A stretch of 64,000 bases of DNA, from the sequence record MN895435.1; one strand, written 5' to 3'. Numbering within the stretch: position 1 is the first letter of the stretch; the number at the start of each line of letters is the position of its first letter. The notes under the pieces were generated by a model, which did not search any database, had not been told where the DNA came from, and was given only the letters and a program-made list of their open reading frames with translations. Shown one piece after another: positions 5,597-36,200 of the stretch. Source of the DNA: Escherichia phage teqhal. Made by a program: the position numbers and the translations under genes.

Positions 5597-7184
<1,588 letters not shown>

Positions 7185-7187
7185 GCT

Positions 7188-7217
7188 GTTTACAAGTCCC
7201 TCATGTTGTGTTACAGT
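7188..7217 (+). promoter_or_regulatory. early (sigma70-dependent T4-type) promoter, copy A of a duplicated ~60-bp element
   Basis: GTTTAC 7188-7193, spacer, TG-n-TACAGT extended -10; upstream of alc. Confidence 0.6.
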
Positions 7218-7248
7218 AGTCTTACTGACATAACATGAGGACTTTATG

Positions 7249-7752
7249 ATGGATTTACAGCTTATTACTACTGAAATGGTCGTTGAAGCATACGGTGATA
7301 CTACAGATGGGATTTCTGTATTCAAAGGAAATCGTCGAGTTGGATATATCACCGATCTTAAGAAAGATTTAGCTAAGCAAGTCAAGCGGAAAACGACCAT
7401 TAAAGAATATCGAAATCGTCGTCTTGAGCAAGCCCGTGATATGCTTCCTGATGCGGTTGGGGAGATGAAAGTCTTTTTAGAAAATCAACTCGCTAAGTAT
7501 GATTGTGAAGTGTTCATTAATCAGACTCAACCTAATGTTCATATTAACAACTGTAAATGCTATATCATCGTTAATCCTTTGACGGGAAAACATCGTCTTG
7601 GAATTAGTAATCCAAATCGTAGTGCATCGGATATGGCAGAAGATGTTGAGGCATGCTTTAAAATTTCTAAATCTCCAGCTGAACATCATATTTTAATTAA
7701 CGGTCTTTCTCAAGACGATATTATAGAGGTTATTAAAACTTTATGCAATTAA
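7249..7752 (+). CDS. alc: Alc, inhibitor of host transcription on cytosine-containing DNA
   Basis: 167 aa from second ATG (MDLQLITTEM...); position between rnlA and pseT as in T4. Confidence 0.8.
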   Translation: MDLQLITTEMVVEAYGDTTDGISVFKGNRRVGYITDLKKDLAKQVKRKTTIKEYRNRRLEQARDMLPDAVGEMKVFLENQLAKYDCEVFINQTQPNVHINNCKCYIIVNPLTGKHRLGISNPNRSASDMAEDVEACFKISKSPAEHHILINGLSQDDIIEVIKTLCN

Positions 7753-8096
7753 GTAATACGACAGCAGGCTTGTTATTAATTGTAATTGCATTGGGCGGAA
7801 CTTCTTTAATTTTAAAAAATAAAATTGAAAGATTAGAAACGTCTGTTGTAGAAATTACAAAAACGGCCAATGAAAACGCTTTAGCATTAGATAATTTGCG
7901 AATTCAGTATAATTATATTGATGCGATGAATAATAAAAATCGTGAGGCAATTGCTGCTATTGAGCGTGAAAATGAAAAACTGCGCAAAGACGCAAAGAAG
8001 GCGGATGTGGTGGCTCATAAGCCAGGATTGGTTGAAAAACAAATCAACAACTCCTTCAACAAGTTCGCAGAAGACATCCAGGACCTTTCTAAATGA
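7743..8096 (+). CDS. pseT.3: i-spanin-like inner-membrane protein (T4 pseT.3 position)
   Basis: N-terminal TM helix TAGLLLIVIALGGTSLIL then coiled-coil-like region; stop overlaps next ORF start. Confidence 0.7.
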   Translation: MQLSNTTAGLLLIVIALGGTSLILKNKIERLETSVVEITKTANENALALDNLRIQYNYIDAMNNKNREAIAAIERENEKLRKDAKKADVVAHKPGLVEKQINNSFNKFAEDIQDLSK

Positions 8097-8392
8097 TTAG
8101 ACTATCAGCAGTAATATTATCTATTGGTCTTCTAGTTGGTTGTTCGACAAAGCCTCTAGAAGTAAAGAAAGAAACAGTTCATCCTAATTGGCCTGTGCAA
8201 ATAAAGTCATATGACGAAGCTAAACTATCTTGGCAAGTTAAAGTTATCGATGGTAAAGCTTGGGTCGGTATGCCATTTGAAGATTCTCAGGAATTTCGTA
8301 TTTGGCTTAATGATGTAAAACGATATGTACATGATCAGAAAACTATGATATGTTATTATCGCCAAGAGTTAAAAGAGGATAAATGCAAATGA
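8093..8392 (+). CDS. pseT.2: o-spanin-like outer-membrane lipoprotein (T4 pseT.2 position)
   Basis: Signal peptide with lipobox MIRLSAVILSIGLLVGC; 99 aa. Confidence 0.7.
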   Translation: MIRLSAVILSIGLLVGCSTKPLEVKKETVHPNWPVQIKSYDEAKLSWQVKVIDGKAWVGMPFEDSQEFRIWLNDVKRYVHDQKTMICYYRQELKEDKCK

Positions 8393-8613
8393 TTTCATGG
8401 CATCAATTTGAACATCTCAAAGGATTGATTTATGAATCCGAGATGGCTGCAATGATTTATGGACGCCAGATTCAACGATTAGAATCTTTACCTCCAACTA
8501 ATGATGTTTTATTAGCTCAATCACGTGCTAATCTTAAAAATGAATACCAAAATAAGTGGGGTAAAGCATCTAAAGACCTGCATGATTATATTCAATCATT
8601 GGTTGAGAAATAA
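8383..8613 (+). CDS. hypothetical protein (76 aa)
   Basis: ORF with SD aagagga; compact operon spacing. Confidence 0.55.
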   Translation: MQMISWHQFEHLKGLIYESEMAAMIYGRQIQRLESLPPTNDVLLAQSRANLKNEYQNKWGKASKDLHDYIQSLVEK

Positions 8614-8616
8614 TAA

Positions 8617-9841
<1,225 letters not shown>

Positions 9842-10512: not shown

Positions 10513-10542
10513 GTTTACTTTACAGTAGAGTTGTGATATTAT
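10513..10542 (+). promoter_or_regulatory. early promoter
   Basis: GTTTAC 10513-10518, 18-nt spacer, TG-a-TATTAT. Confidence 0.6.
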
Positions 10543-10572
10543 GGCTCTACCAAACAAATGAGGAAATTGAAA

Positions 10573-11100
10573 ATGAGCGAATGGTTTGAAGAAGATAAGG
10601 TTTATCGCTTTAAAGCTGGATATAAAGATATTTTTAATGAAACTTGCGGGGCTAATAAACGAATTGCTCAGTTTATTGGGGAAAATTCATTTAAAGTAAA
10701 AATTGATCCCGCGAAAAATGTTATTAGCATTAAACGTGAAATTGACGATTACTGGTATAAAGCTGTTGATGTAATGGGTGAATGCTATAAAGATAGCCCA
10801 TTATTTTCAATTACTTATATGTCAGAATATTATTTTTTCGAAGAAGTTCAAAAAGATGATTCTGTCAGTAAATTTGAAATTAAAACTGATAAAGAAATTA
10901 AATGGAAAGTAGTAGGTATTACTGGTTGTATGTTTTATATCTATGCTCAAACTGATACGAAGGAAGAAGCTAAAAAGAAAGCTCTAGAATATCTTGAAGA
11001 GTATGAAGAAGGCCCGGTAATGATTACTCAAGATGCTGAATTAGTTTCTGTCAAATTAGTTAAAAACGTTGAAAGTAAGGAGCTGGGATCAACATGCTAA
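10573..11100 (+). CDS. hypothetical protein (175 aa from ATG 10573)
   Basis: SD gaggaaa 10560-10566 then ATG; ORF. Confidence 0.6.
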   Translation: MSEWFEEDKVYRFKAGYKDIFNETCGANKRIAQFIGENSFKVKIDPAKNVISIKREIDDYWYKAVDVMGECYKDSPLFSITYMSEYYFFEEVQKDDSVSKFEIKTDKEIKWKVVGITGCMFYIYAQTDTKEEAKKKALEYLEEYEEGPVMITQDAELVSVKLVKNVESKELGSTC

Positions 11101-14443: not shown

Positions 14444-14472
14444 GTTTACTTTGGTACAGGATATGATATTAT
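14444..14472 (+). promoter_or_regulatory. early promoter overlapping a GGTACAGG/CCTGTACC inverted repeat
   Basis: GTTTAC 14444-14449, spacer, TG-a-TATTAT; inverted repeat 14453-14460 / 14476-14483. Confidence 0.6.
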
Positions 14473-14509
14473 ATACCTGTACCGCAATTAAACATCTCGG
14501 AGAATAAAA

Positions 14510-14875
14510 ATGAACTACATCAACTTTGAACGTAAATATGTTTCTAATGGTATTGCAGGTTCTATTGATACTATTTGCCTTTGGAAACATCAAAATGGAT
14601 CAGTATGCGAAATTGAACAGTATATGACTCCTAACTACGTTTATATGCGATTTGAAAACGGTATCACGGTTTCAATCACGATGGAAGGTTCCAACTTTAA
14701 AATCGCTCTGGATGATGATTTCCGTCAACGCGATTTAGGGACTCATCCTTGCTGGAATGGTGTTAATCGTAAACTCTTAGTTAAAACTTGGATTCGTCAT
14801 ATTCTGAGTAACAAAGCCAAACCTGAGCATCTTGAAGCAATCTTTGATGTAGTTCTTAATGAATTTGATATTTAA
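14510..14875 (+). CDS. hypothetical protein (121 aa)
   Basis: ORF with SD ggag. Confidence 0.65.
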   Translation: MNYINFERKYVSNGIAGSIDTICLWKHQNGSVCEIEQYMTPNYVYMRFENGITVSITMEGSNFKIALDDDFRQRDLGTHPCWNGVNRKLLVKTWIRHILSNKAKPEHLEAIFDVVLNEFDI

Positions 14876-17157: not shown

Positions 17158-18617
17158 TTCTTAAAATTCTGAACGAAATAGCATCTATTGGTTCAACTAA
17201 GCAGAAGCAAGCAATTCTTGAAAAGAATAAAGATAATGAATTGCTTAAACGAGTATATCGTCTGACTTATTCTCGTGGGTTGCAGTATTATATCAAGAAA
17301 TGGCCTAAATCTGGTATTGCTACCCAGAGTTTTGGAATGTTGACTCTTACCGATATGCTTGACTTCATTGAATTCACGTTAGCTACTCGGAAATTGACCG
17401 GAAATGCGGCAATTGAGGAATTAACTGGATATATTGCTGACGGTAAAAAAGATGATGTTGAAGTTTTGCGTCGGGTGATGATGCGAGACCTTGAATGCGG
17501 TGCTTCAGTATCTATTGCAAACAAAGTTTGGCCAGGTTTAATTCCTGAACAACCTCAAATGCTTGCAAGTTCTTATGATGAAAAAGGCATTAATAAGAAT
17601 ATCAAATTTCCAGCTTTTGCCCAGTTAAAAGCTGATGGAGCTCGGTGTTTTGCTGAAGTTAGAGGTGATGAATTAGATGATGTTCGTCTTTTATCACGAG
17701 CTGGTAATGAATATCTAGGATTAGACCTTCTCAAAGAAGAGTTAATCAAAATGACCGCTGAAGCCCGCCAGATTCATCCAGAAGGTGTGTTAATTGATGG
17801 CGAATTGGTATACCATGAGCAAGTTAAAAAGGAGCCAGAAGGCCTAGATTTTCTTTTTGATGCTTATCCTGAAATTAGTAAAGCTAAAGAATTCGCCGAA
17901 GTAGCTGAATCACGTACTGCATCTAATGGCATCGCCAATAAATCTTTAAAGGGAACCATTTCTGAAAAAGAAGCACAATGCATGAAGTTTCAGGTCTGGG
18001 ATTATGTCCCGTTGGTAGAAGTATACGGTCTTCCAGCATTTCGCTTGAAATATGATGTACGTTTTTCTAAATTAGAACAAATGACATCAGGCTATGATAA
18101 AGTAATTTTAATTGAAAACCAGGTAGTAAATAACCTAGATGAAGCTAAGGTAATTTATAAAAAGTATATTGACCAAGGTCTTGAAGGTATTATTCTCAAA
18201 AATATCGATGGATTATGGGAAAATGCTCGTTCGAAAAATCTCTATAAATTTAAAGAAGTAATTGATGTTGATTTAAAAATTGTAGGAATTTATCCTCACC
18301 GTAAAGACCCTACTAAAGCAGGTGGATTTATTCTTGAGTCAGAGTGTGGAAAAATTAAGGTAAATGCTGGTTCAGGCTTAAAAGATAAAGCCGGCGTAAA
18401 ATCACATGAACTTGACCGTACTCGCATTATGGAAAACCAAAATTATTATATTGGAAAAATTCTAGAGTGCGAATGCAACGGTTGGTTAAAATCTGATGGC
18501 CGCACTGATTACGTTAAATTATTTCTTCCAATTGCGATTCGTTTGCGTGAAGATAAAACTAAAGCTAATACATTCGAAGATGTATTTGGTGATTTTCATG
18601 AGGTAACTGGTTTATGA
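17154..18617 (+). CDS. 30: ATP-dependent DNA ligase
   Basis: 487 aa MILKILNEIASIGSTKQKQAIL...; adenylation lysine motif KADGAR; matches recalled T4 DNA ligase. Confidence 0.96.
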   Translation: MILKILNEIASIGSTKQKQAILEKNKDNELLKRVYRLTYSRGLQYYIKKWPKSGIATQSFGMLTLTDMLDFIEFTLATRKLTGNAAIEELTGYIADGKKDDVEVLRRVMMRDLECGASVSIANKVWPGLIPEQPQMLASSYDEKGINKNIKFPAFAQLKADGARCFAEVRGDELDDVRLLSRAGNEYLGLDLLKEELIKMTAEARQIHPEGVLIDGELVYHEQVKKEPEGLDFLFDAYPEISKAKEFAEVAESRTASNGIANKSLKGTISEKEAQCMKFQVWDYVPLVEVYGLPAFRLKYDVRFSKLEQMTSGYDKVILIENQVVNNLDEAKVIYKKYIDQGLEGIILKNIDGLWENARSKNLYKFKEVIDVDLKIVGIYPHRKDPTKAGGFILESECGKIKVNAGSGLKDKAGVKSHELDRTRIMENQNYYIGKILECECNGWLKSDGRTDYVKLFLPIAIRLREDKTKANTFEDVFGDFHEVTGL

Positions 18618-18802
18618 AAGCTTACTTAGAAACAGTTGTCGTAGCTCAAAAAGAAGGTGGAGATGTTTCTACTTCTGTATCACAAGTCGTTCTCGAATTT
18701 GTAGATGCATATGCTTATAATAAATTTACAGAAACATTTGATGCCTATGAAAAAGGTCCAAAGTTTGAAATATACCGTACTCTCTTACCACTAGATTATT
18801 AA
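18614..18802 (+). CDS. hypothetical protein (62 aa)
   Basis: ORF overlapping ligase stop. Confidence 0.5.
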   Translation: MKAYLETVVVAQKEGGDVSTSVSQVVLEFVDAYAYNKFTETFDAYEKGPKFEIYRTLLPLDY

Positions 18803-18824
18803 AGGCCTTCGGGCCTTTAATTTT
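18801..18824 (+). terminator. rho-independent terminator-like hairpin
   Basis: aaaggcc-ttcg-ggccttt followed by aatttta. Confidence 0.65.
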
Positions 18825-18831
18825 ATAAATA
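18824..18831 (+). promoter_or_regulatory. late promoter TATAAATA upstream of alt
   Basis: Exact TATAAATA ~22 bp before the alt start. Confidence 0.7.
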
Positions 18832-18854
18832 GAATAAACACTAGAGAGGATATG

Positions 18855-20948
18855 ATGGAACTCATTACAGAATTATTTGACGAAGATACTACTCTTCCGA
18901 TTACAAACTTAAATCCAAAGAAGAAAATACCACAAATTTTTTCAGTTCACGTTGATGATGCAATTGAACAACCAGGCTTTCGTTTATGTACCTATACATC
19001 TGGAGGTGATACTAATCGCGATTTAAAGATGGGCGATAAAATGATGCATATTGTTCCTTTTACATTAACTGCTAAAGGTTCAATTGCTAAATTGAAAGGT
19101 CTTGGTCCAAGCCCAATTAATTATATCAATTCAGTTTTTACTGTTGCAATGCAAACAATGCGTCAGTATAAAATTGATGCCTGTATGCTCCGTATTCTTA
19201 AGTCTAAAACTGCTGGTCAAGCTCGACAAATTCAAGTTATTGCTGATAGACTTATCCGTAGTCGTTCAGGTGGAAGATACGTCCTTCTTAAGGAACTCTG
19301 GGATTATGATAAAAAGTATGCATATATTCTTATACATCGCAAAAATGTATCACTAGAAGACATTCCAGGAGTTCCGGAAATTAGTACCGAGCTCTTTACT
19401 AAGGTTGAATCGAAGGTCGGTGATGTTTATATCAATAAAGATACTGGAGCTCAAGTAACTAAAAATGAGGCAATTGCAGCATCTATTGCACAAGAAAATG
19501 ATAAACGTTCTGACCAAGCTGTAATCGTTAAAGTTAAAATTTCCCGTAGAGCAATTGCACAAAGTCAGTCATTGGAATCTTCTAGATTTGAAAGTGAATT
19601 ATTCCAGAAGTATGAATCTACCGCAGCTAATTTCAATAAACCTGCTACTGCTCCTTTAATTCCCGAAGCAGAAGAAATGAAGCTTGGAATTAATTCATTA
19701 GCTTCTAAAACTAAGGCAGCAAAAATTATTGCCGAAGGAACTGCGAATGAACTTCACTATGACTATAAATTCTTTTCAAAAAGTGAGGTTAATGAAGTTT
19801 CCGAAAAAATTAAAGATGTAATTCTTAATGCGATCAAAAATGAACCAACTACTTCAATAAAATGTTTAGAGAAATACGCAGCAGCTGTCAATCAATTCTT
19901 TGAAAAATATAAAGATAATTGGCTTGATAAACATAATAAAACTCGTAAAGGGCAGCCAGATGAAGTCTGGGAAGAAATAACTAAAAATTCCTGGAACGCA
20001 GCAAAAACTAAATTCCTCAAACGAATGATTTATAGTTTTTCTGGAATTGGTGCAGGCCCAATGATTGATATTACTATTGCCCGCGATGGTTCTAAATATA
20101 CTCCATCACAAAAGCGTGGCATTAGAGAATATTGCGGTTCAGGATATACTGACATCAATAATCTTCTTTTAGGTCGTTACAATCCAGAACGATATGATGT
20201 AATGAGTGAAAAAGAAATTGAATCTGCTATAAATAATTTAGATTCAGCTTTTGAAAATGGTGACCGTATACCAGAAGGCATTACAGTTTATCGTGCTCAA
20301 AGCATGACTGCTCCTATATACGAAGCACTAGTTAAAAATAAAGTGTTCTATTTCAGAAATTTTGTATCTACTTCTTTAACTCCTATCATTTTTGGACGTT
20401 TTGGAATTACACATGCTGGTATTGGTCTTTTAGAACCAGAAGCTCGTAACGAATTAACGGTTGATAAAAATGAAGAAGGAATAACTATTAATCCAAACGA
20501 AATAAGAGCGTATAAAGAAAATCCTGAATACGTTAAAGTTCAAATAGGATGGGCAATTGATGGAGCTCATAAAGTTAATGTTGTATATCCAGGAAGTCTC
20601 GGAATAGCAACAGAAGCTGAAGTTATTCTACCGCGCGGATTGATGGTTAAAGTTAATAAAATAACTGATGCTTCTAATAATGACGGAACCACGTCTAATA
20701 ATACAAAACTCATTCAAGCTGAAGTTATGACCACAGAAGAACTCACCGAATCGGTAATCTATGACGGAGACCATTTAATGGAAACCGGCGAAGTAGTTGC
20801 AATGACAGGTGATATTGAAATAGAAGACAGAGTTGACTTTGCATCATTTGTTTCATCAAATGTTAAACAGAAAGTAGAATCATCTCTTGGAATTATTGCG
20901 TCTTGCATAGATATTACAAACATGCCTTACAAGTTCGTTCAAGGATAA
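18855..20948 (+). CDS. alt: Alt-family ADP-ribosyltransferase (capsid-packaged), copy 1
   Basis: 697 aa from MELITELFDE...; C-terminal R-S-ExE motifs (YRAQ, VSTSL, EAEVILPRG). Confidence 0.85.
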   Translation: MELITELFDEDTTLPITNLNPKKKIPQIFSVHVDDAIEQPGFRLCTYTSGGDTNRDLKMGDKMMHIVPFTLTAKGSIAKLKGLGPSPINYINSVFTVAMQTMRQYKIDACMLRILKSKTAGQARQIQVIADRLIRSRSGGRYVLLKELWDYDKKYAYILIHRKNVSLEDIPGVPEISTELFTKVESKVGDVYINKDTGAQVTKNEAIAASIAQENDKRSDQAVIVKVKISRRAIAQSQSLESSRFESELFQKYESTAANFNKPATAPLIPEAEEMKLGINSLASKTKAAKIIAEGTANELHYDYKFFSKSEVNEVSEKIKDVILNAIKNEPTTSIKCLEKYAAAVNQFFEKYKDNWLDKHNKTRKGQPDEVWEEITKNSWNAAKTKFLKRMIYSFSGIGAGPMIDITIARDGSKYTPSQKRGIREYCGSGYTDINNLLLGRYNPERYDVMSEKEIESAINNLDSAFENGDRIPEGITVYRAQSMTAPIYEALVKNKVFYFRNFVSTSLTPIIFGRFGITHAGIGLLEPEARNELTVDKNEEGITINPNEIRAYKENPEYVKVQIGWAIDGAHKVNVVYPGSLGIATEAEVILPRGLMVKVNKITDASNNDGTTSNNTKLIQAEVMTTEELTESVIYDGDHLMETGEVVAMTGDIEIEDRVDFASFVSSNVKQKVESSLGIIASCIDITNMPYKFVQG

Positions 20949-20951
20949 ATC

Positions 20952-23009
20952 ATGGAACTTATTACAGAATTATTTGACGGCGCTTCGGCGCCGGTTGTTA
21001 ACTTAAATCCTAAGCATAAAATACCACAAATTTTTGCTATTCAAGCCGGCGAAGAAAGTGTGCTTCCTGGATTTAGATTTTGTACATACACCTCTGGCGG
21101 TGATACAAATAAAAACGTTAAGCCAGGCGATAAAATGATGCATATCGTAATGATAGGCGTCAACGAGAAATTATCGCTGGTTAAGCTTAGAAACTTGGGT
21201 GGAAATCCAATTGGCGTCATTAATGCGGTTTTTGATACTGCTCTTCAAACAATGAAGCAGTATAAAATCGACGCATGCTTATTCCGCGTACTAAAAAGTA
21301 AAACAAATGGCGCAGCTCGTCAAATGCAAGTTATTGCTGACCGTTTAGTACGTACTAAAGGAGCAGGTCGATATGTTCTTTTAAAGGAAATCTGGGATTA
21401 TGATAAAAAGTACGCATATATTATGGTTTACCGTAAAAATGCCAAATTAGAAGACATTCCAGGTGTACCTCCTATTTCAACTGAGTTATTCACAAAAGTT
21501 GAATCAAAGGTTGGTGATGTTTATGTAGACGTTAAAACAGGTAATGCTGTTCCTAAAGCTGTTGCTGTTGCTGCTTCTATTGCTTTAGAAAATGATAAGC
21601 GCACGGATCAAGCTGTTATTCAGAAAACTAAAATTAGTCGTCGATTAGCAGCGCAAGCTCAATATTCTACTGTTGATGCTTCACTTCAGGGTGATAGCTT
21701 CGCTGCTAAGAAATATCAAGAGTTTGAATCTAAAGTTCCGGTATATAAAGCAGAAGGACCAATGAACTCTGGCGTTATTCAGATTGGTTCAAACTTTAGC
21801 AAAGGAGCTATCGGTGGTATGAGAAGTGCTTCTCGTTTTAAATCTAGCGATTATGAACTAGAAAGTTTCCGAAATCATATTGCATTAGCCCATGCACGTT
21901 TACGTGATCCATCTATCAAGTTGCAGAGCGATATAACATATCAAGGTTCTCAAGAATATTTAAAGAATAAAGAATTCTTTGATTATAAAACTGATAAAAT
22001 TTTAAGCGATCTTGCTGATATTAATATTTCTAATAGCTTTGATGTTATTAAGAAAATTATCAATGATTTGGTTAAAGGTTCTAAAGCTACGCCAGATGAA
22101 AAGACAGCTATTATTCAATTTGTCATGAATGGCATTTATAAATTGATTAATGAATCTGCTGCTCAGGCATATGAATACGCAAGCACTGAAGTAACTCCAA
22201 AAGGACTGACTCAGGCTGAGTCTGATGTAATTGAAGATTATTGTGCAGATTCATATGTTGAAATGAACTCGTTCCTTTTGGGTAAACCAGATTCTACCCG
22301 TGAAGAATATATGGAACGAGCTATTAAGCACATTGAGACGTTGGATTCTGCATTCGCTAAAGGTTCAGTTCTTCCTCCAGGAACTACGCTTTATCGTGGA
22401 CAAGAAGTTACCTTTAAAACTTTGCGTCATAACATTGAAAACAAAATGTTCTATTTCAAGAACTTCGTATCGACATCGCTTAAACCAAATATCTTCGGTG
22501 AGCATGGTAAAAACTATATGGCTCTAGATGATTCCGGTGCAGTATTTTCTGGCGAAGGAGAAGGTTCTGTTGATGCAGAAGATTTAATGCATATGGGTAG
22601 TCATTCTGCATATGCTAATGAAGATGCTGAAACTAGCGTAGGTATGGTAATTAAAGGGGCTGAGCGAATCAAAGTTATCGTTCCAGGTCATTTATCAGGA
22701 TTTCCATCAGAAGCTGAAGTTATTCTACCACGTGGAATTTTGTTAAAGATTAATAAAGTAAGCACGTACATGATGAAAGAAACTGCTTATAACAAGTATC
22801 TAATCGAAGGCACAATCGTTCCTCCTTCTGACCAATTAGAAGAATCAGTATATGATGGCGACCATTTAATGGAAACTGGTGAAGTTCGTCCAATGGCTGG
22901 ATTTAATCAATTCCTTGTAGAAGAATCAAAAGAAGAGGAAAACGAAGTTTCTCAAATCTTGGCTTCTTTGGTTAACATCAACGGAATGTCTAAAAAGTTC
23001 AAAATGTAG
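20952..23009 (+). CDS. Alt-family ADP-ribosyltransferase paralogue, copy 2
   Basis: 685 aa, same N-terminus MELITELFD and conserved N-terminal ~230 aa; R-S-ExE motifs (YRGQ, VSTSL, EAEVILPRG); divergent middle region. Confidence 0.85.
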   Translation: MELITELFDGASAPVVNLNPKHKIPQIFAIQAGEESVLPGFRFCTYTSGGDTNKNVKPGDKMMHIVMIGVNEKLSLVKLRNLGGNPIGVINAVFDTALQTMKQYKIDACLFRVLKSKTNGAARQMQVIADRLVRTKGAGRYVLLKEIWDYDKKYAYIMVYRKNAKLEDIPGVPPISTELFTKVESKVGDVYVDVKTGNAVPKAVAVAASIALENDKRTDQAVIQKTKISRRLAAQAQYSTVDASLQGDSFAAKKYQEFESKVPVYKAEGPMNSGVIQIGSNFSKGAIGGMRSASRFKSSDYELESFRNHIALAHARLRDPSIKLQSDITYQGSQEYLKNKEFFDYKTDKILSDLADINISNSFDVIKKIINDLVKGSKATPDEKTAIIQFVMNGIYKLINESAAQAYEYASTEVTPKGLTQAESDVIEDYCADSYVEMNSFLLGKPDSTREEYMERAIKHIETLDSAFAKGSVLPPGTTLYRGQEVTFKTLRHNIENKMFYFKNFVSTSLKPNIFGEHGKNYMALDDSGAVFSGEGEGSVDAEDLMHMGSHSAYANEDAETSVGMVIKGAERIKVIVPGHLSGFPSEAEVILPRGILLKINKVSTYMMKETAYNKYLIEGTIVPPSDQLEESVYDGDHLMETGEVRPMAGFNQFLVEESKEEENEVSQILASLVNINGMSKKFKM

Positions 23010-23038
23010 TTTACAAGTTCCTTATGTTGTGTTATAGT
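23008..23038 (+). promoter_or_regulatory. early promoter, copy B of the duplicated ~60-bp element
   Basis: GTTTAC 23008-23013, spacer, TG-t-TATAGT; near-identical to 7188-7245. Confidence 0.6.
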
Positions 23039-23069
23039 AGTCTTACTGACATAACATGAGGAACACAAA

Positions 23070-23360
23070 ATGAAATCTTCTTTGCGCTTTTTAGGTCAAG
23101 AACTTGTAGTTGAAGGCGTTATTCCTGCTGATAACGCTTTTAATGAAGCAGTTTACGATGAATTTATTAAAATTTTTGGAACAGATAAAAAGTTCGGAAT
23201 TTTTCCTTCTGAAAATTTTTCAAAGTCAGAACAGACTGAAAGTATTTTTCAGGGTGTAGTAACAGGTAAATTTGAGTCAGAAGCTCCGGTAAAAATTGAA
23301 GTTTATATTGAAGACAGTTTAGTTGCTTCAGTTGCTGCTTTCATTTCATTCCGTAAATAA
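23070..23360 (+). CDS. hypothetical protein (96 aa)
   Basis: ORF with SD gagga downstream of the early promoter. Confidence 0.6.
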   Translation: MKSSLRFLGQELVVEGVIPADNAFNEAVYDEFIKIFGTDKKFGIFPSENFSKSEQTESIFQGVVTGKFESEAPVKIEVYIEDSLVASVAAFISFRK

Positions 23361-23364
23361 AAAT

Positions 23365-23386
23365 ATGGGGACCGAAAGGTCCCCAT
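23365..23386. terminator. bidirectional terminator hairpin between convergent genes
   Basis: atggggacc-gaaa-ggtccccat; U-run on the minus-strand side. Confidence 0.65.
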
Positions 23387-23388
23387 TG

Positions 23389-24354
23389 TTATATTGCTCC
23401 TAATATTTTACTTTGCGAATTGACAATTCCTGTCATAGTATTAATGTTTGAAATGCTTCCTGCAGTTCCACCTAATCTACTGAGTCGTGAAAGAGAATTA
23501 GATAGTCCAGTAACACCTCCACTATTTCCGAGAACGCTTTGAATACCATTTATAGCAGCAGATTCAAGCCATTCAAGCGCAGCTTGCCTATCAACTGCTC
23601 CAGCCTGCATGACTCTATACGCAAAAGTAACATCAAATGTAGTTATTTGGTTATCTCCATCATATGATAATTCAGGAGCGCTCACTGACATTGGAATGCA
23701 TCCGGTGAACATTACCGCAGTATGAGGTAATCCATTGCGAGAATGAAGATTAACCTGAATATCTGCCTCGACATCTTGTGGCAAAGCACGCAGTCCAGTT
23801 ACTGGGTCTTGAACAGCGTTAACCCAGTCTTGCATTGCACGATAGTTACAAGCTTCTGAATCCATTCTAAATGAAATAACCAAAGGGTCTAATTCTCTCC
23901 CAGTTATACGAATATTAGGAGAGTTGTAGTTCCAGTCAGTTTCATAGGATAATCTATTCTCTGGCATTTTTACAGAGTATATCATCAATCCAGATGAGTT
24001 ATATGCCATGTTAAAGAAGTCAATTAAATATGTACCAACTGTAAATGAGCCTAATAAACTTTGAACTGTACGTTGACTCATGGCACCAATAAGATATTTA
24101 CTAACCCCTGATTTTCTTATCAGTTTTTGTGTGCCAGCTGTAATTAGCGTGGTAATTCCCTGATTAATATCACCTTGAGTTAATCCTAGCCAATCTGAAT
24201 TTAGGCCCAAGTTATTATAAGAAAAGTTGCTAATTGAACTTATCAACGAAGAGCTTTTAGTTGATGGAGTTGTTGCAAAAACGCAGCTAAACATATTATT
24301 ACGTTGGAAATCTGCGTTTATTGCTTGATTATTAAATTCCTCTAAAGAATACAT
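23389..24354 (-). CDS. 54: baseplate tail-tube initiator
   Basis: 321-aa ORF; size and position as T4 gp54. Confidence 0.88.
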   Translation of the reverse strand: MYSLEEFNNQAINADFQRNNMFSCVFATTPSTKSSSLISSISNFSYNNLGLNSDWLGLTQGDINQGITTLITAGTQKLIRKSGVSKYLIGAMSQRTVQSLLGSFTVGTYLIDFFNMAYNSSGLMIYSVKMPENRLSYETDWNYNSPNIRITGRELDPLVISFRMDSEACNYRAMQDWVNAVQDPVTGLRALPQDVEADIQVNLHSRNGLPHTAVMFTGCIPMSVSAPELSYDGDNQITTFDVTFAYRVMQAGAVDRQAALEWLESAAINGIQSVLGNSGGVTGLSNSLSRLSRLGGTAGSISNINTMTGIVNSQSKILGAI

Positions 24355-25448
24355 TAAAAAGTCCCCGCATATAAAGAAGCACGGTTTAACGTGATAATTT
24401 CTCTCATAGTAATCTCGAGAGTAAATGTACTAGGGAGGTTTGGAGCAATAGCTAATCCGTTAAAGTTACCATTAGGTGTTTTGTCAAATCTGATACTCTG
24501 GATTTGACATGGGCCAAATATTTCCGTTTTTCCATCAAACTTAGATGTTGCACCAAAGTTTTTCACCATCCAAATTGTCGGGTTTGAAACTACTAGAACG
24601 TTAGTTAAACTCGATGTCATTTTCTCAAATAGTGTTTTATTTTTAGCTGCGTCTTCCGGAGATAAAGGTTCAATTAACGTAGAACGATACCAATCATCTA
24701 AATACCCCTTTATTTCAGCAGCATATTGAGATTTACCCGTTTCACCGTAAGAAAAATAGTTAAAATATTGATAGATATTAATAATAGCCATTAAATCTTC
24801 TGTTGAACGTGGAGTCAAATCCCATGTAAACACTTTAGTTCTATTTTCAGCACCACCATACATACTTCTGGCTGTCGTATAAATCTGTTCATTATTATCA
24901 GCCATTATACCTTGTGTTATACTTTCCAGTGCCCCAAATACTGCGGTTGAAGCAATATTACTTAGCACTCCAGTAGCAGTACCTCCGCCTCTACTGATAA
25001 GGCTTTCTTGAACATCATTAAATCTATGTGATGATGTATCAACATCAGATTTAGATCTCGGTAAAAGAATGTTTGCGATAGGAGCTTTACTTATTGTTCC
25101 TGAATTATTATTTGATATTAATCCATTTGATAGTTTTGACACTGTACTACTAATAGTGTTTCTGGCTGTACGTAAAATACTCGAAGATGAAGAAGAGTAG
25201 TTAGATCTCATCGATCTAAGACTTCCAGAATCCCTAGATGACATATTGTATGCAGTAAATAATAATCCATTCTTATACAGATCTGTTACCTGGAAGTCCC
25301 CTGTAGTGTCATTACCACTAGCACGCCCAGTTGGAAACTGGGCTGTGTATGTTTTAGTTCCTACTTCTGATTTAGTACTCTGTCCGGCTGAAATTTTCTC
25401 ACCGGACTTTTTAATTAAATCAGCAGTTATTTCTTTAACAATTGCCAT
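24354..25448 (-). CDS. 48: baseplate tail-tube cap
   Basis: 364-aa ORF; size and position as T4 gp48. Confidence 0.88.
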   Translation of the reverse strand: MAIVKEITADLIKKSGEKISAGQSTKSEVGTKTYTAQFPTGRASGNDTTGDFQVTDLYKNGLLFTAYNMSSRDSGSLRSMRSNYSSSSSSILRTARNTISSTVSKLSNGLISNNNSGTISKAPIANILLPRSKSDVDTSSHRFNDVQESLISRGGGTATGVLSNIASTAVFGALESITQGIMADNNEQIYTTARSMYGGAENRTKVFTWDLTPRSTEDLMAIINIYQYFNYFSYGETGKSQYAAEIKGYLDDWYRSTLIEPLSPEDAAKNKTLFEKMTSSLTNVLVVSNPTIWMVKNFGATSKFDGKTEIFGPCQIQSIRFDKTPNGNFNGLAIAPNLPSTFTLEITMREIITLNRASLYAGTF

Positions 25449-34781: not shown

Positions 34782-36200
34782 ATGGCTTTTACAGTTGATA
34801 TAACTCCTAAAACACCTACTGGAGTTATAGATCAGACTCAGCAGTTTACTGCTACACCCAGTGGTCAAACTGGAGATGGACCTATTACATATGCTTGGAC
34901 TGTAGACGACGCTCCACAGGAAGAAACGTCAGCAACTTTTAGTTATGTATTAAAAGGACCTGCCGGTCAAAAGACTATTAAAGTAGTTGCAACAAATCAA
35001 GTTGCCGATAGTAGTCCCGAAACAGCTGAAATTAGTACAACTATCACAGTTCAAAATAAGACACAAACGACTACCTTAGCTGTAACTCCTAATAGTCCTC
35101 CGGAAGGAGTAATCGGAACAGCTGTTGAATTTACCGCTGCTTTGGCTTCGCAGCCATCAGGCGCATCTGCTACGTATCAATGGTACGTTGACGGTTCTCC
35201 TGTGAGCGAAGCGACTAGCGCTACATTCAATTACACTCCTGACACAAGCGGAGTTAAAACAATCAAGTGTGTGGCTCAAGTAACCGCGACAGATTATGAT
35301 GCAAAAGAAGTTACTTCTAATGAAGTGTCATTGACTGTTAATAAAAAGACACAGATAACTACTTTGGCAGTAACTCCCGATAGTCCTTCAGCTGGAGTAA
35401 TTGGAACACCAGTTCAATTTACTGCTGCCTTAGCTTCTCAACCTGATGGAGCATCTGCTACGTATCAGTGGTATGTAGATGATTCACAAGTTGGTGGAGA
35501 AACTAACTCTACATTTAGCTATACTCCAACTACAAGTGGAGTAAAAAGAATTAAATGCGTAGCCCAAGTAACTGCTGAAAATTACAATGAAAAGGAAGTT
35601 ACTTCGAATGAAGTATCATTAACAGTTAATAAGAAGACAATGAATCCACAGGTTACATTGACTCCTCCTTCTATTAACGTTCAACAAGATGCTTCGGCTA
35701 CATTTACTGCTAATGTCACTGATGCTCCAGAAGAAGCGCAAATTGCGTATTCATGGAAGAAAGATTCTTCTCCTGTAGAAGGGTCAACTAATGTATATAC
35801 CGTTGATACCTCATCTATTGGAAGTCAAACTATTGAAGTTACTGCAACTGTTACTGCTGCTGATTATGATAGCAAAACTATTACGGCGGAAGGTCAAGTT
35901 CAGGTAACTGGTAAAGTTGCTCCAGAGCCAGAAGGTGAATTACCTTATGTTCATCCTCTTCCACATCGTACTTCAGCTTACATCTGGTGTGGTTGGTGGG
36001 TTATGGATGAAATCCAAAAAATGACCGAAGAAGGTAAAGATTGGAAAACTGACGATCCAGATAGTAAGTACTACTTGCATCGTTACACTCTCCAGAAGAT
36101 GATGAAAGACTATCCAGAAGTTGATGTTCAAGAATCACGTAATGGATACATCATTCATAAAACTGCTTTAGAAACTGGTATCATCTATACCTATCCATAA
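34782..36200 (+). CDS. hoc: Hoc outer capsid decoration protein with four tandem Ig-like domains
   Basis: 472 aa; N- and C-terminal regions match recalled T4 Hoc (376 aa); extra 96-aa Ig-like domain from internal tandem repeat. Confidence 0.9.
   Translation: MAFTVDITPKTPTGVIDQTQQFTATPSGQTGDGPITYAWTVDDAPQEETSATFSYVLKGPAGQKTIKVVATNQVADSSPETAEISTTITVQNKTQTTTLAVTPNSPPEGVIGTAVEFTAALASQPSGASATYQWYVDGSPVSEATSATFNYTPDTSGVKTIKCVAQVTATDYDAKEVTSNEVSLTVNKKTQITTLAVTPDSPSAGVIGTPVQFTAALASQPDGASATYQWYVDDSQVGGETNSTFSYTPTTSGVKRIKCVAQVTAENYNEKEVTSNEVSLTVNKKTMNPQVTLTPPSINVQQDASATFTANVTDAPEEAQIAYSWKKDSSPVEGSTNVYTVDTSSIGSQTIEVTATVTAADYDSKTITAEGQVQVTGKVAPEPEGELPYVHPLPHRTSAYIWCGWWVMDEIQKMTEEGKDWKTDDPDSKYYLHRYTLQKMMKDYPEVDVQESRNGYIIHKTALETGIIYTYP
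35061..35636 (+). repeat. in-frame tandem duplication (2 x 288 bp) encoding two Ig-like domains within hoc
   Basis: aa 94-189 and 190-285 align end to end (TQ[T/I]TTLAVTP...EVSLTVNKK), ~80% aa identity. Confidence 0.85.

Follow-up and report, generated by a model that had tools for sequence, protein, structure and literature searches.

The genome of Escherichia phage teqhal (sequence record MN895435.1) poses a question: why does one short promoter and leader sequence stand, almost unchanged, before two genes that are not neighbours, alc and alt.-3? We addressed it in a stretch of 64,000 nt of this genome, hereafter the window, to which all positions refer. The sequence suggests that the element is probably a T4-type early promoter fused to a leader, which would act as a gate dependent on the origin of the transcript, and that it is ancestral at alc and was patched onto alt.-3. 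Its two copies and their parts are:

7188-7241, + strand: copy A of the promoter/leader block, between rnlA and alc, the putative donor
7194-7244, + strand: predicted RNA hairpin of copy A, with the Shine-Dalgarno (SD) sequence GAGG at 7237-7240 within its 3' arm
23009-23062, + strand: copy B of the block, between the second alt paralogue and alt.-3
23010-23038, + strand: sigma-70/T4-early-type promoter of copy B, with -35 TTTACA (23010-23015), a 17-nt spacer, TGn (23030-23032) and -10 TATAGT (23033-23038)
23017-23064, + strand: predicted RNA hairpin of copy B, with its 5' arm at 23017-23033, its 3' arm at 23048-23064 and the SD GAGG at 23058-23061

One block in two places

The two copies are identical at 51 of 54 bases. 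A preliminary description of this DNA had placed a duplicated element at 7186-7245 and 23006-23066, and these coordinates prove accurate to within 3-4 bases. It had also noticed an overlap with the stop codon of the second alt paralogue, which we confirm: the TAG of this 685-aa paralogue (23007-23009) covers the first base of copy B. A pattern spanning both copies matched twice in the window, versus 0.00 matches expected from 100 shuffles. The shared block is exactly 54 nt long and runs from the G of GTTTACA to GAGGA. The flanks on either side are unrelated, and the block limits are constant across about 15 genomes.

The window belongs to a T2/T4-like Tequatrovirus, in which T4 early transcription runs along the + strand. 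Megablast searches with 20900-24400 and 5800-8800 retrieved Tequatrovirus genomes at 95-98% identity, about 500 in number and including T2, T4 and RB51. In each of about 500 Tequatrovirus records, a 78-nt query hit exactly two sites. T4 itself (AF158101) has both copies, at approximately 123,040-123,093 and 136,283-136,336, differing at 1 of 54 bases, and in one IMG/VR genome the copies are identical at 54/54. Pattern scans returned eight stretches from IMG/VR and six from a metagenome collection, all from near-identical Tequatrovirus.

The promoter

Both copies have a GTTTACA, a 17-base spacer, a TGn and a -10 of the form TAYAGT, as in T4 early promoters, which are of the UP/-35/TGn/-10 type with the consensus GTTTAC-N14-gtggTAttaT (Hinton 2010, PMC2988021). 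An A-rich stretch (CTAAAAAGTTCAAAATGTA) lies upstream of copy B only; copy A has CCCAGAAGGATACTAAGCT, which is not A/T-rich. The TTTACA-N17-TATAGT of copy B, with its TGn, scores 10/12 and is the top sigma-70-like match within 18000-25000. In addition, GenBank record MZ726795 annotates the same element as a T4 early promoter and quotes a matching T4 early-promoter consensus. Promoter match and annotation thus support the preliminary description, which had proposed an early promoter/leader element directly upstream of the 96-aa open reading frame at 23070 (alt.-3). Transcription would start near A23045 in copy B and near 7223 in copy A. Upstream of alt.-3, GTTTACA-N17-TAnnnT is kept in every genus examined. 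The element differs from other T4 early promoters in its spacer, which is not free sequence and instead is almost wholly complementary to the leader.

Two more early-promoter-like sites (TTTACT-N17-TATTAT) were found on the + strand, at 10514-10580 and 14445-14510. They have inverted repeats around the -10 (GTAGAG/CTCTAC and GGTACAGGATAT/ATACCTGTACC), neither of which reaches the SD.

A predicted hairpin that joins promoter spacer and ribosome-binding site

In the predicted RNA, the promoter spacer forms the 5' arm, the -10 and the putative start fall in the loop and the inner part of the stem, and the leader with the SD GAGG forms the 3' arm. The sense strand folds into a 21-bp hairpin, at -25.7 kcal/mol (z = -5.7) for copy B and -26.1 kcal/mol (z = -4.5) for copy A. 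RNA beginning at the putative +1 is predicted to be almost unstructured (-3 to -4 kcal/mol, z close to 0). The partition function gives a probability of 0.00 that the SD is unpaired in read-through RNA, compared with 0.53 (copy A) and 0.13 (copy B) in RNA from the own promoter.

The constraint seems to act on the sense RNA rather than on the DNA, because G-U pairing is kept and the antisense fold is weaker. In natural variants of the 5' arm (CCTCATG, CCTCGTG and CCTTATG), pairing with CATGAGG is maintained by G-U, and the antisense strand of copy B folds at -15.7 kcal/mol, that is, 10 kcal/mol less stably. Furthermore, a C-to-T change specific to copy B (GTTCC) compensates for its 3' flank GGAAC (-23.5 versus -19.1). 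An Rfam search of the whole window gave nothing at the gathering score and only chance-level matches (E up to 1).

Two other roles for the RNA were considered. A RegB target was rejected, as the Tequatrovirus SD is GAGG and not GGAG. The 21-bp helix was also considered as an RNase III substrate; the stems are shorter in other lineages.

Covariation at alc across lineages

Protein-guided retrieval yielded 24 alc loci from IMG/VR and four from GenBank. Upstream of alc, at least nine lineages outside Tequatrovirus have GTTTACA, 17 nt of spacer, a -10 and then a leader in which the segment with the SD is complementary to the spacer. The stem sequences vary from lineage to lineage and the layout is kept. 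The spacer positions can be compared directly, because the promoter geometry fixes them. Across 14 elements from about ten lineages, the leader pairs with 14-18 of the 18 spacer positions and the spacer with three to four of the four SD bases, while the pair types at homologous spacer positions change among CG, UA, AU and GC.

RNAalifold, run on a MAFFT alignment of the 14 elements, returned an out-of-register consensus with almost no energy. Covariation was instead judged by a matrix of own versus cross-lineage duplexes and by a per-position table of pairs anchored on the promoter geometry. The duplex of a spacer with its own leader averages -20.1 kcal/mol, as opposed to -10.9 kcal/mol for cross-lineage combinations, and the own combination ranks first or second in every row and column of the matrix. 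The promoter spacer and the ribosome-binding site covary.

The Gaprivervirus-like genomes of about 170-171 kb (L052, L053, L069) have an alc without an upstream GTTTACA promoter. There, alc is preceded by a GC-rich terminator-like hairpin (AAGGGGTGTACAAGCCCCTT) and then by a second, small hairpin, distinct from the first, in which the SD is still enclosed (GGTTCCATCAACTACTGATGAGGACC).

Origin of copy B

For alt.-3, the comparison covered 24 non-Tequatrovirus loci from GenBank and IMG/VR. All 24 have GTTTACA-N17-TAnnnT. However, in 22 of them the spacer contains a short palindrome lying wholly within it (e.g. CCACAAGGATGTGG), without pairing to the SD; of the other two, PM2 has its own, different long hairpin and L070 folds differently. 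EcS1, Marfa and Gelderlandvirus have the long hairpin at alc and the short palindrome at alt.-3. Copy B therefore looks like a patch of the alc type, since 22 of the 24 alt.-3 loci outside Tequatrovirus carry another promoter type.

The ends of the patch coincide with motifs common to both cassettes, the -35 GTTTACA and the SD ACATGAGGA, and the latter is found again, unchanged or almost unchanged, in the leaders of alt.-3 in other genera. Most simply read, these sequences suggest that alc had the long-hairpin cassette ancestrally and that a 54-nt patch of the alc type overwrote the alt.-3 promoter in the Tequatrovirus ancestor. From the same comparison we infer that the direction of transfer was from alc to alt.-3. 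Short-homology recombination, with its ends in GTTTACA and the SD motif, would have replaced the original promoter, and one ancestral transfer is enough.

The exchange of cassettes between alc and alt.-3 is not limited to Tequatrovirus. In a JS98-like genome (IMG/VR UViG_2706795356, 170,473 bp), alc (L058) and alt.-3 (L072) share the leader ACCTTACACAAACATGAGGAGAACATTATG(AA) and have different spacer types, and the identity of the leaders begins directly behind the -10 and extends to the ATG, over 30 aligned nt. This exchange is independent of the one in Tequatrovirus and has other end points. More generally, the similarity between alc and alt.-3 leaders is lineage-specific in six of the eight lineages.

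Several observations were made on the alt.-3 type of spacer. Roughly 60 nt before the ATG of the non-Tequatrovirus alt.-3 loci (L035-L041, L070-L086), the stem of the spacer palindrome varies with compensation (CACA/TGTG, CACC/GGTG, GCAC/GTGC, TCC/GGA), and the loop keeps a GGA. Some 35 nt 3' of the palindrome, the SD contains another GGA. This arrangement resembles CsrA-type GGA hairpin sites. The same kind of element precedes alc in Mosigvirus and in Serratia phage PS2. In addition, Mosigvirus Shf125875 (L034, 2291-2351) has, upstream of ndd.1, a -10 and leader (TATAGTAGTCCTACTGAAACATGAGGAACACAAAATG) that resemble the Tequatrovirus alt.-3 leader. This site lies at another locus, the rIIB-denB-ndd region, and its hairpin GTAGGA/TCCTAC brackets the -10.

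A proposed gate dependent on transcript origin

The genes and signals around the two copies, identified with Pfam and annotated relatives, are:

6024-7184, + strand: rnlA (Pfam T4 RNA ligase 1), directly 5' of copy A
7246-7752, + strand: alc (Pfam ALC), the gene 3' of copy A
18824-18831, + strand: late-promoter motif TATAAATA, 20 nt upstream of alt
18852-20948, + strand: alt, a 698-aa ADP-ribosyltransferase (open reading frame and Pfam)
20952-23009, + strand: second alt paralogue, 685 aa, "alt.-2" in RB51 (open reading frame and Pfam)
23070-23360, + strand: alt.-3, 96 aa, DUF5498 (Pfam PF17602, E = 2e-63; annotated as alt.-3 in RB51 and T4)
23365-23386, both strands: bidirectional terminator-like hairpin between alt.-3 and gene 54, found by a terminator scan of both strands
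23389-24354, convergent to alt.-3: gene 54

Late alt transcripts should cross the element, because TATAAATA precedes alt and no U-tract terminator intervenes: the terminator scan found none between alt, the paralogue and alt.-3, and the next terminator-like site is the hairpin at 23365-23386, which is likely the 3' end of all rightward transcripts. RNA from upstream, be it late alt transcripts from TATAAATA at 18824 or early read-through, would thus carry both arms of the hairpin. Such RNA is predicted to fold at about -26 kcal/mol and would hide the alt.-3 ribosome-binding site. RNA from the own promoter, starting near 23045, would be without the 5' arm and open to translation. Immediate-early transcripts from the own promoter would therefore be the main source of Alt.-3 and, at copy A, of Alc. 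Read-through masking would act likewise on alc, downstream of rnlA. We infer promoter activity, read-through and translational masking alike from the nucleotide sequence.

A terminator-like hairpin (AAAGGCCTTCGGGCCTTT, approximately 18802-18825) runs directly into the late motif, so that a compact terminator/late-promoter junction follows alt.1 at 18802-18831.

A number of points speak against such a gate. In copy B the SD is predicted to stay partly paired in RNA from the own promoter (0.13 unpaired), through a weak structure of -4 kcal/mol. Most other genera have no SD masking at alt.-3, and the gate is therefore not essential for this gene. Furthermore, the hairpins of three alc lineages (L055, L059, L066) end just before the SD. 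The inclusion of the SD is also likely from geometry alone, as in an intergenic space of about 60 nt a hairpin that encloses the -10 tends to reach the SD. With these points weighed in, a gate that depends on transcript origin is still the probable function of the element. Translational gating at an early promoter appears to be undescribed, though the older T4 literature may hold a prior description.

Alternative explanations

The element fits the class of PeSL (promoter-early stem-loop) cassettes of T4-type phages, and T4 has it as well. A PeSL cassette consists of an upstream stop codon, a sigma-70-like promoter, a stem-loop between or over the promoter boxes, an SD and a start codon (Arbiol et al. 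2010, PMC2839356; Comeau et al. 2014, PMC4122927), with the PST/T4 promoter consensus TTTACW-N17-TAYWAT (PMC2839356; PMC4122927), which the promoter of the block matches. The same order is found here, with the TAG at 23007-23009, the promoter at 23010-23038, the hairpin at 23017-23064, the SD at 23058-23061 and the ATG at 23070. Like PeSLs, the element is a composite intergenic cassette that occurs more than once in the genome and is linked to exchange by short homology. It departs from them in having the SD within the 3' arm and in a pairing that covaries from genus to genus. PeSLs occupy hyperplastic regions, where close relatives differ by insertions, deletions or replacements. Here the genes on either side keep their order; the cassette itself, however, appears to have been replaced in Tequatrovirus, and a T4 deletion ends nearby at a microhomology that is not a PeSL.

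PeSL stem-loops have been read as terminators and recombination sites, and translation is nowhere mentioned (PMC2839356; PMC4122927). The alternative that survives best is a terminator or attenuator of the PeSL type, which would damp upstream transcription or stabilize its 3' end before the promoter restarts it, with the SD pairing being incidental. Terminator function was proposed for PeSL stem-loops located between or over the promoter boxes, and one of them reduced lacZ output like a strong terminator (PMC2839356), but this published assay cannot tell termination from masking of a ribosome-binding site. WebGeSTer labelled the present hairpin a rho-independent terminator in MZ726795. Unlike a rho-independent terminator, however, the hairpin has no U-tract after its stem, the tails being ACUUUAUG and AACACAAAAUG, and the terminator scan does not call the hairpin. 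A canonical terminator stands 300 nt downstream (23365-23386), and the SD lies within the 3' arm in all 14 long-hairpin elements. We consider this alternative unlikely.

An element acting at the level of DNA, be it a cruciform, a recombination hotspot or an operator in the spacer, with copies kept alike by ongoing gene conversion, is more doubtful still. PeSLs recombine into mini-circles in RB49 and phi1 (PMC2839356), the JS98-like genome offers a second, independent alc/alt.-3 cassette exchange with 30 identical bases up to the ATG, and phage pSs-1 has the variant GTAATC in both copies. However, the pair of copies A and B cannot act as an excisable mini-circle cassette, because it flanks 15.8 kb including essential genes; a crossover between the direct copies would remove essential genes 30 and 31. 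The G-U pairs, like the lower stability of the antisense fold, argue for RNA, and the stems change with compensation, unlike a sequence-specific operator. Nor was ongoing conversion seen in Tequatrovirus: copies A and B differ on average by 2.3 bases within a genome and by 2.57 between genomes, which is not significantly fewer (permutation p = 0.18, 10 genomes). Continuing gene conversion between the copies was thus rejected.

The last alternative, raised in the preliminary description, is that the element marks a recombination boundary of the alt tandem duplication, with gene content changing there; although copy B abuts the stop codon of the second paralogue and a T4-type deletion ends merely 11 nt upstream, this is very improbable, since the genes on either side are the same in eight genera, the duplication is ancient, the promoter type differs where the SP18 gene adjoins alt.-3, and the T4 deletion used a microhomology outside the block.

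The alt duplication looks older than the element

The preliminary description had suggested aligning the region to see whether gene content changes at the element. It does not: the order of an alt-like ADP-ribosyltransferase, a spacer of about 58 nt, alt.-3 and the convergent gene 54 is invariant in the eight genera. The two alt paralogues share 41% amino-acid identity. In SP18, the gene adjoining alt.-3 is named altb, and the promoter there is of another type. Given this protein identity and the SP18 altb with its other promoter, versus an element that is 94% identical between its copies, the alt duplication looks far older than the element.

The nearby deletion in T4 has its own explanation in a short repeat:

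21291-21299 (left) and 22990-22998 (right), + strand: 9-nt direct repeat CTAAAAAGT

The T4 lineage deleted the equivalent of 21300-22989 (1.7 kb) between these repeats, which left the alt.-1/alt.-2 remnant of the paralogue. This deletion ends at the right repeat, 11 nt upstream of copy B and hence outside it. Other changes in alt copy number are crossovers within the alt genes (megablast matches H32 and H39). The idea that recombination has been at work here stands in so far as the element itself looks like a recombinant patch, ending in -35 and SD motifs. It does not stand as a boundary of the alt duplication.

Relation to known translational gates of T4

The principle of such a gate has been shown experimentally for the T4 genes e, soc, 49 and I-TevI. 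Their long transcripts lock the SD or the AUG in a helix, and a promoter inside the 5' structure gives short transcripts that are without the 5' arm and are translated (review PMC3014915). In these gates the late promoter TATAAATA rescues a late gene from early read-through RNA (PMC3014915). The element shares with them an SD paired in a predicted stable helix and a proximal promoter whose transcripts would be without the 5' arm. It differs in that the promoter in the hairpin is of the early sigma-70 type and the logic would be reversed, with translation only from the gene's own early RNA. No TATAAATA late motif was found inside the element. We therefore regard it as a variant and not as a strict member of this family of gates, because its internal promoter is early and is without TATAAATA. 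The 2010 review on post-transcriptional control (PMC3014915) names no alc or alt.-3 hairpins.

What is apparently new, then, is a putative early-promoter version of the T4 gate that masks a ribosome-binding site, with covariation across genera, and a clearly delimited, probable transfer of a cassette from alc to alt.-3.

Other features of the window and of a relative

Outside this region, two tandem units of 288 nt with 74% identity lie at 35046-35621, inside hoc as judged by the offset from the annotated relative L030; they presumably correspond to the repeated immunoglobulin-like domains of hoc. In Escherichia phage Ge15 (PP359696; L031, 9021-10055), genes annotated as insertion sequence-type transposases InsC and InsD lie within the gene 30.x region of this T4-like phage. 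These may be either a real insertion or an assembly artefact.

Significance

T4 is the reference system for phage gene regulation, and its listed hairpins that mask ribosome-binding sites are all coupled to late promoters. It is possible, and we propose it tentatively, that the pairing of spacer and SD is a conserved, so far unlisted device of Tevenvirinae early genes, accompanied by repeated independent exchange of cassettes between alc and alt.-3. Such a device would be the mirror image of the late-promoter gates of gene e and I-TevI. If so, promoter spacers can hold a second code at the level of RNA, which would explain the conservation of this spacer. In genome annotation, hairpins of this kind receive terminator labels that may be wrong. 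The 54-nt patch is a well-resolved natural case of the short-homology cassette exchange that has been proposed for PeSLs.

For the phage, the gate would restrict Alc, a terminator of host transcription, and Alt.-3 to the first minutes of infection, despite later transcripts crossing the genes. The gene alt.-3 is non-essential and uncharacterised, and mutants with C-terminal extensions escape CmdTAC (PMC11618068). If the proposed device is real, the repeated exchange would follow from selection on alc and alt.-3 for one expression programme, and this shared programme would link the uncharacterised Alt.-3 to the Alc/Alt module of host takeover.

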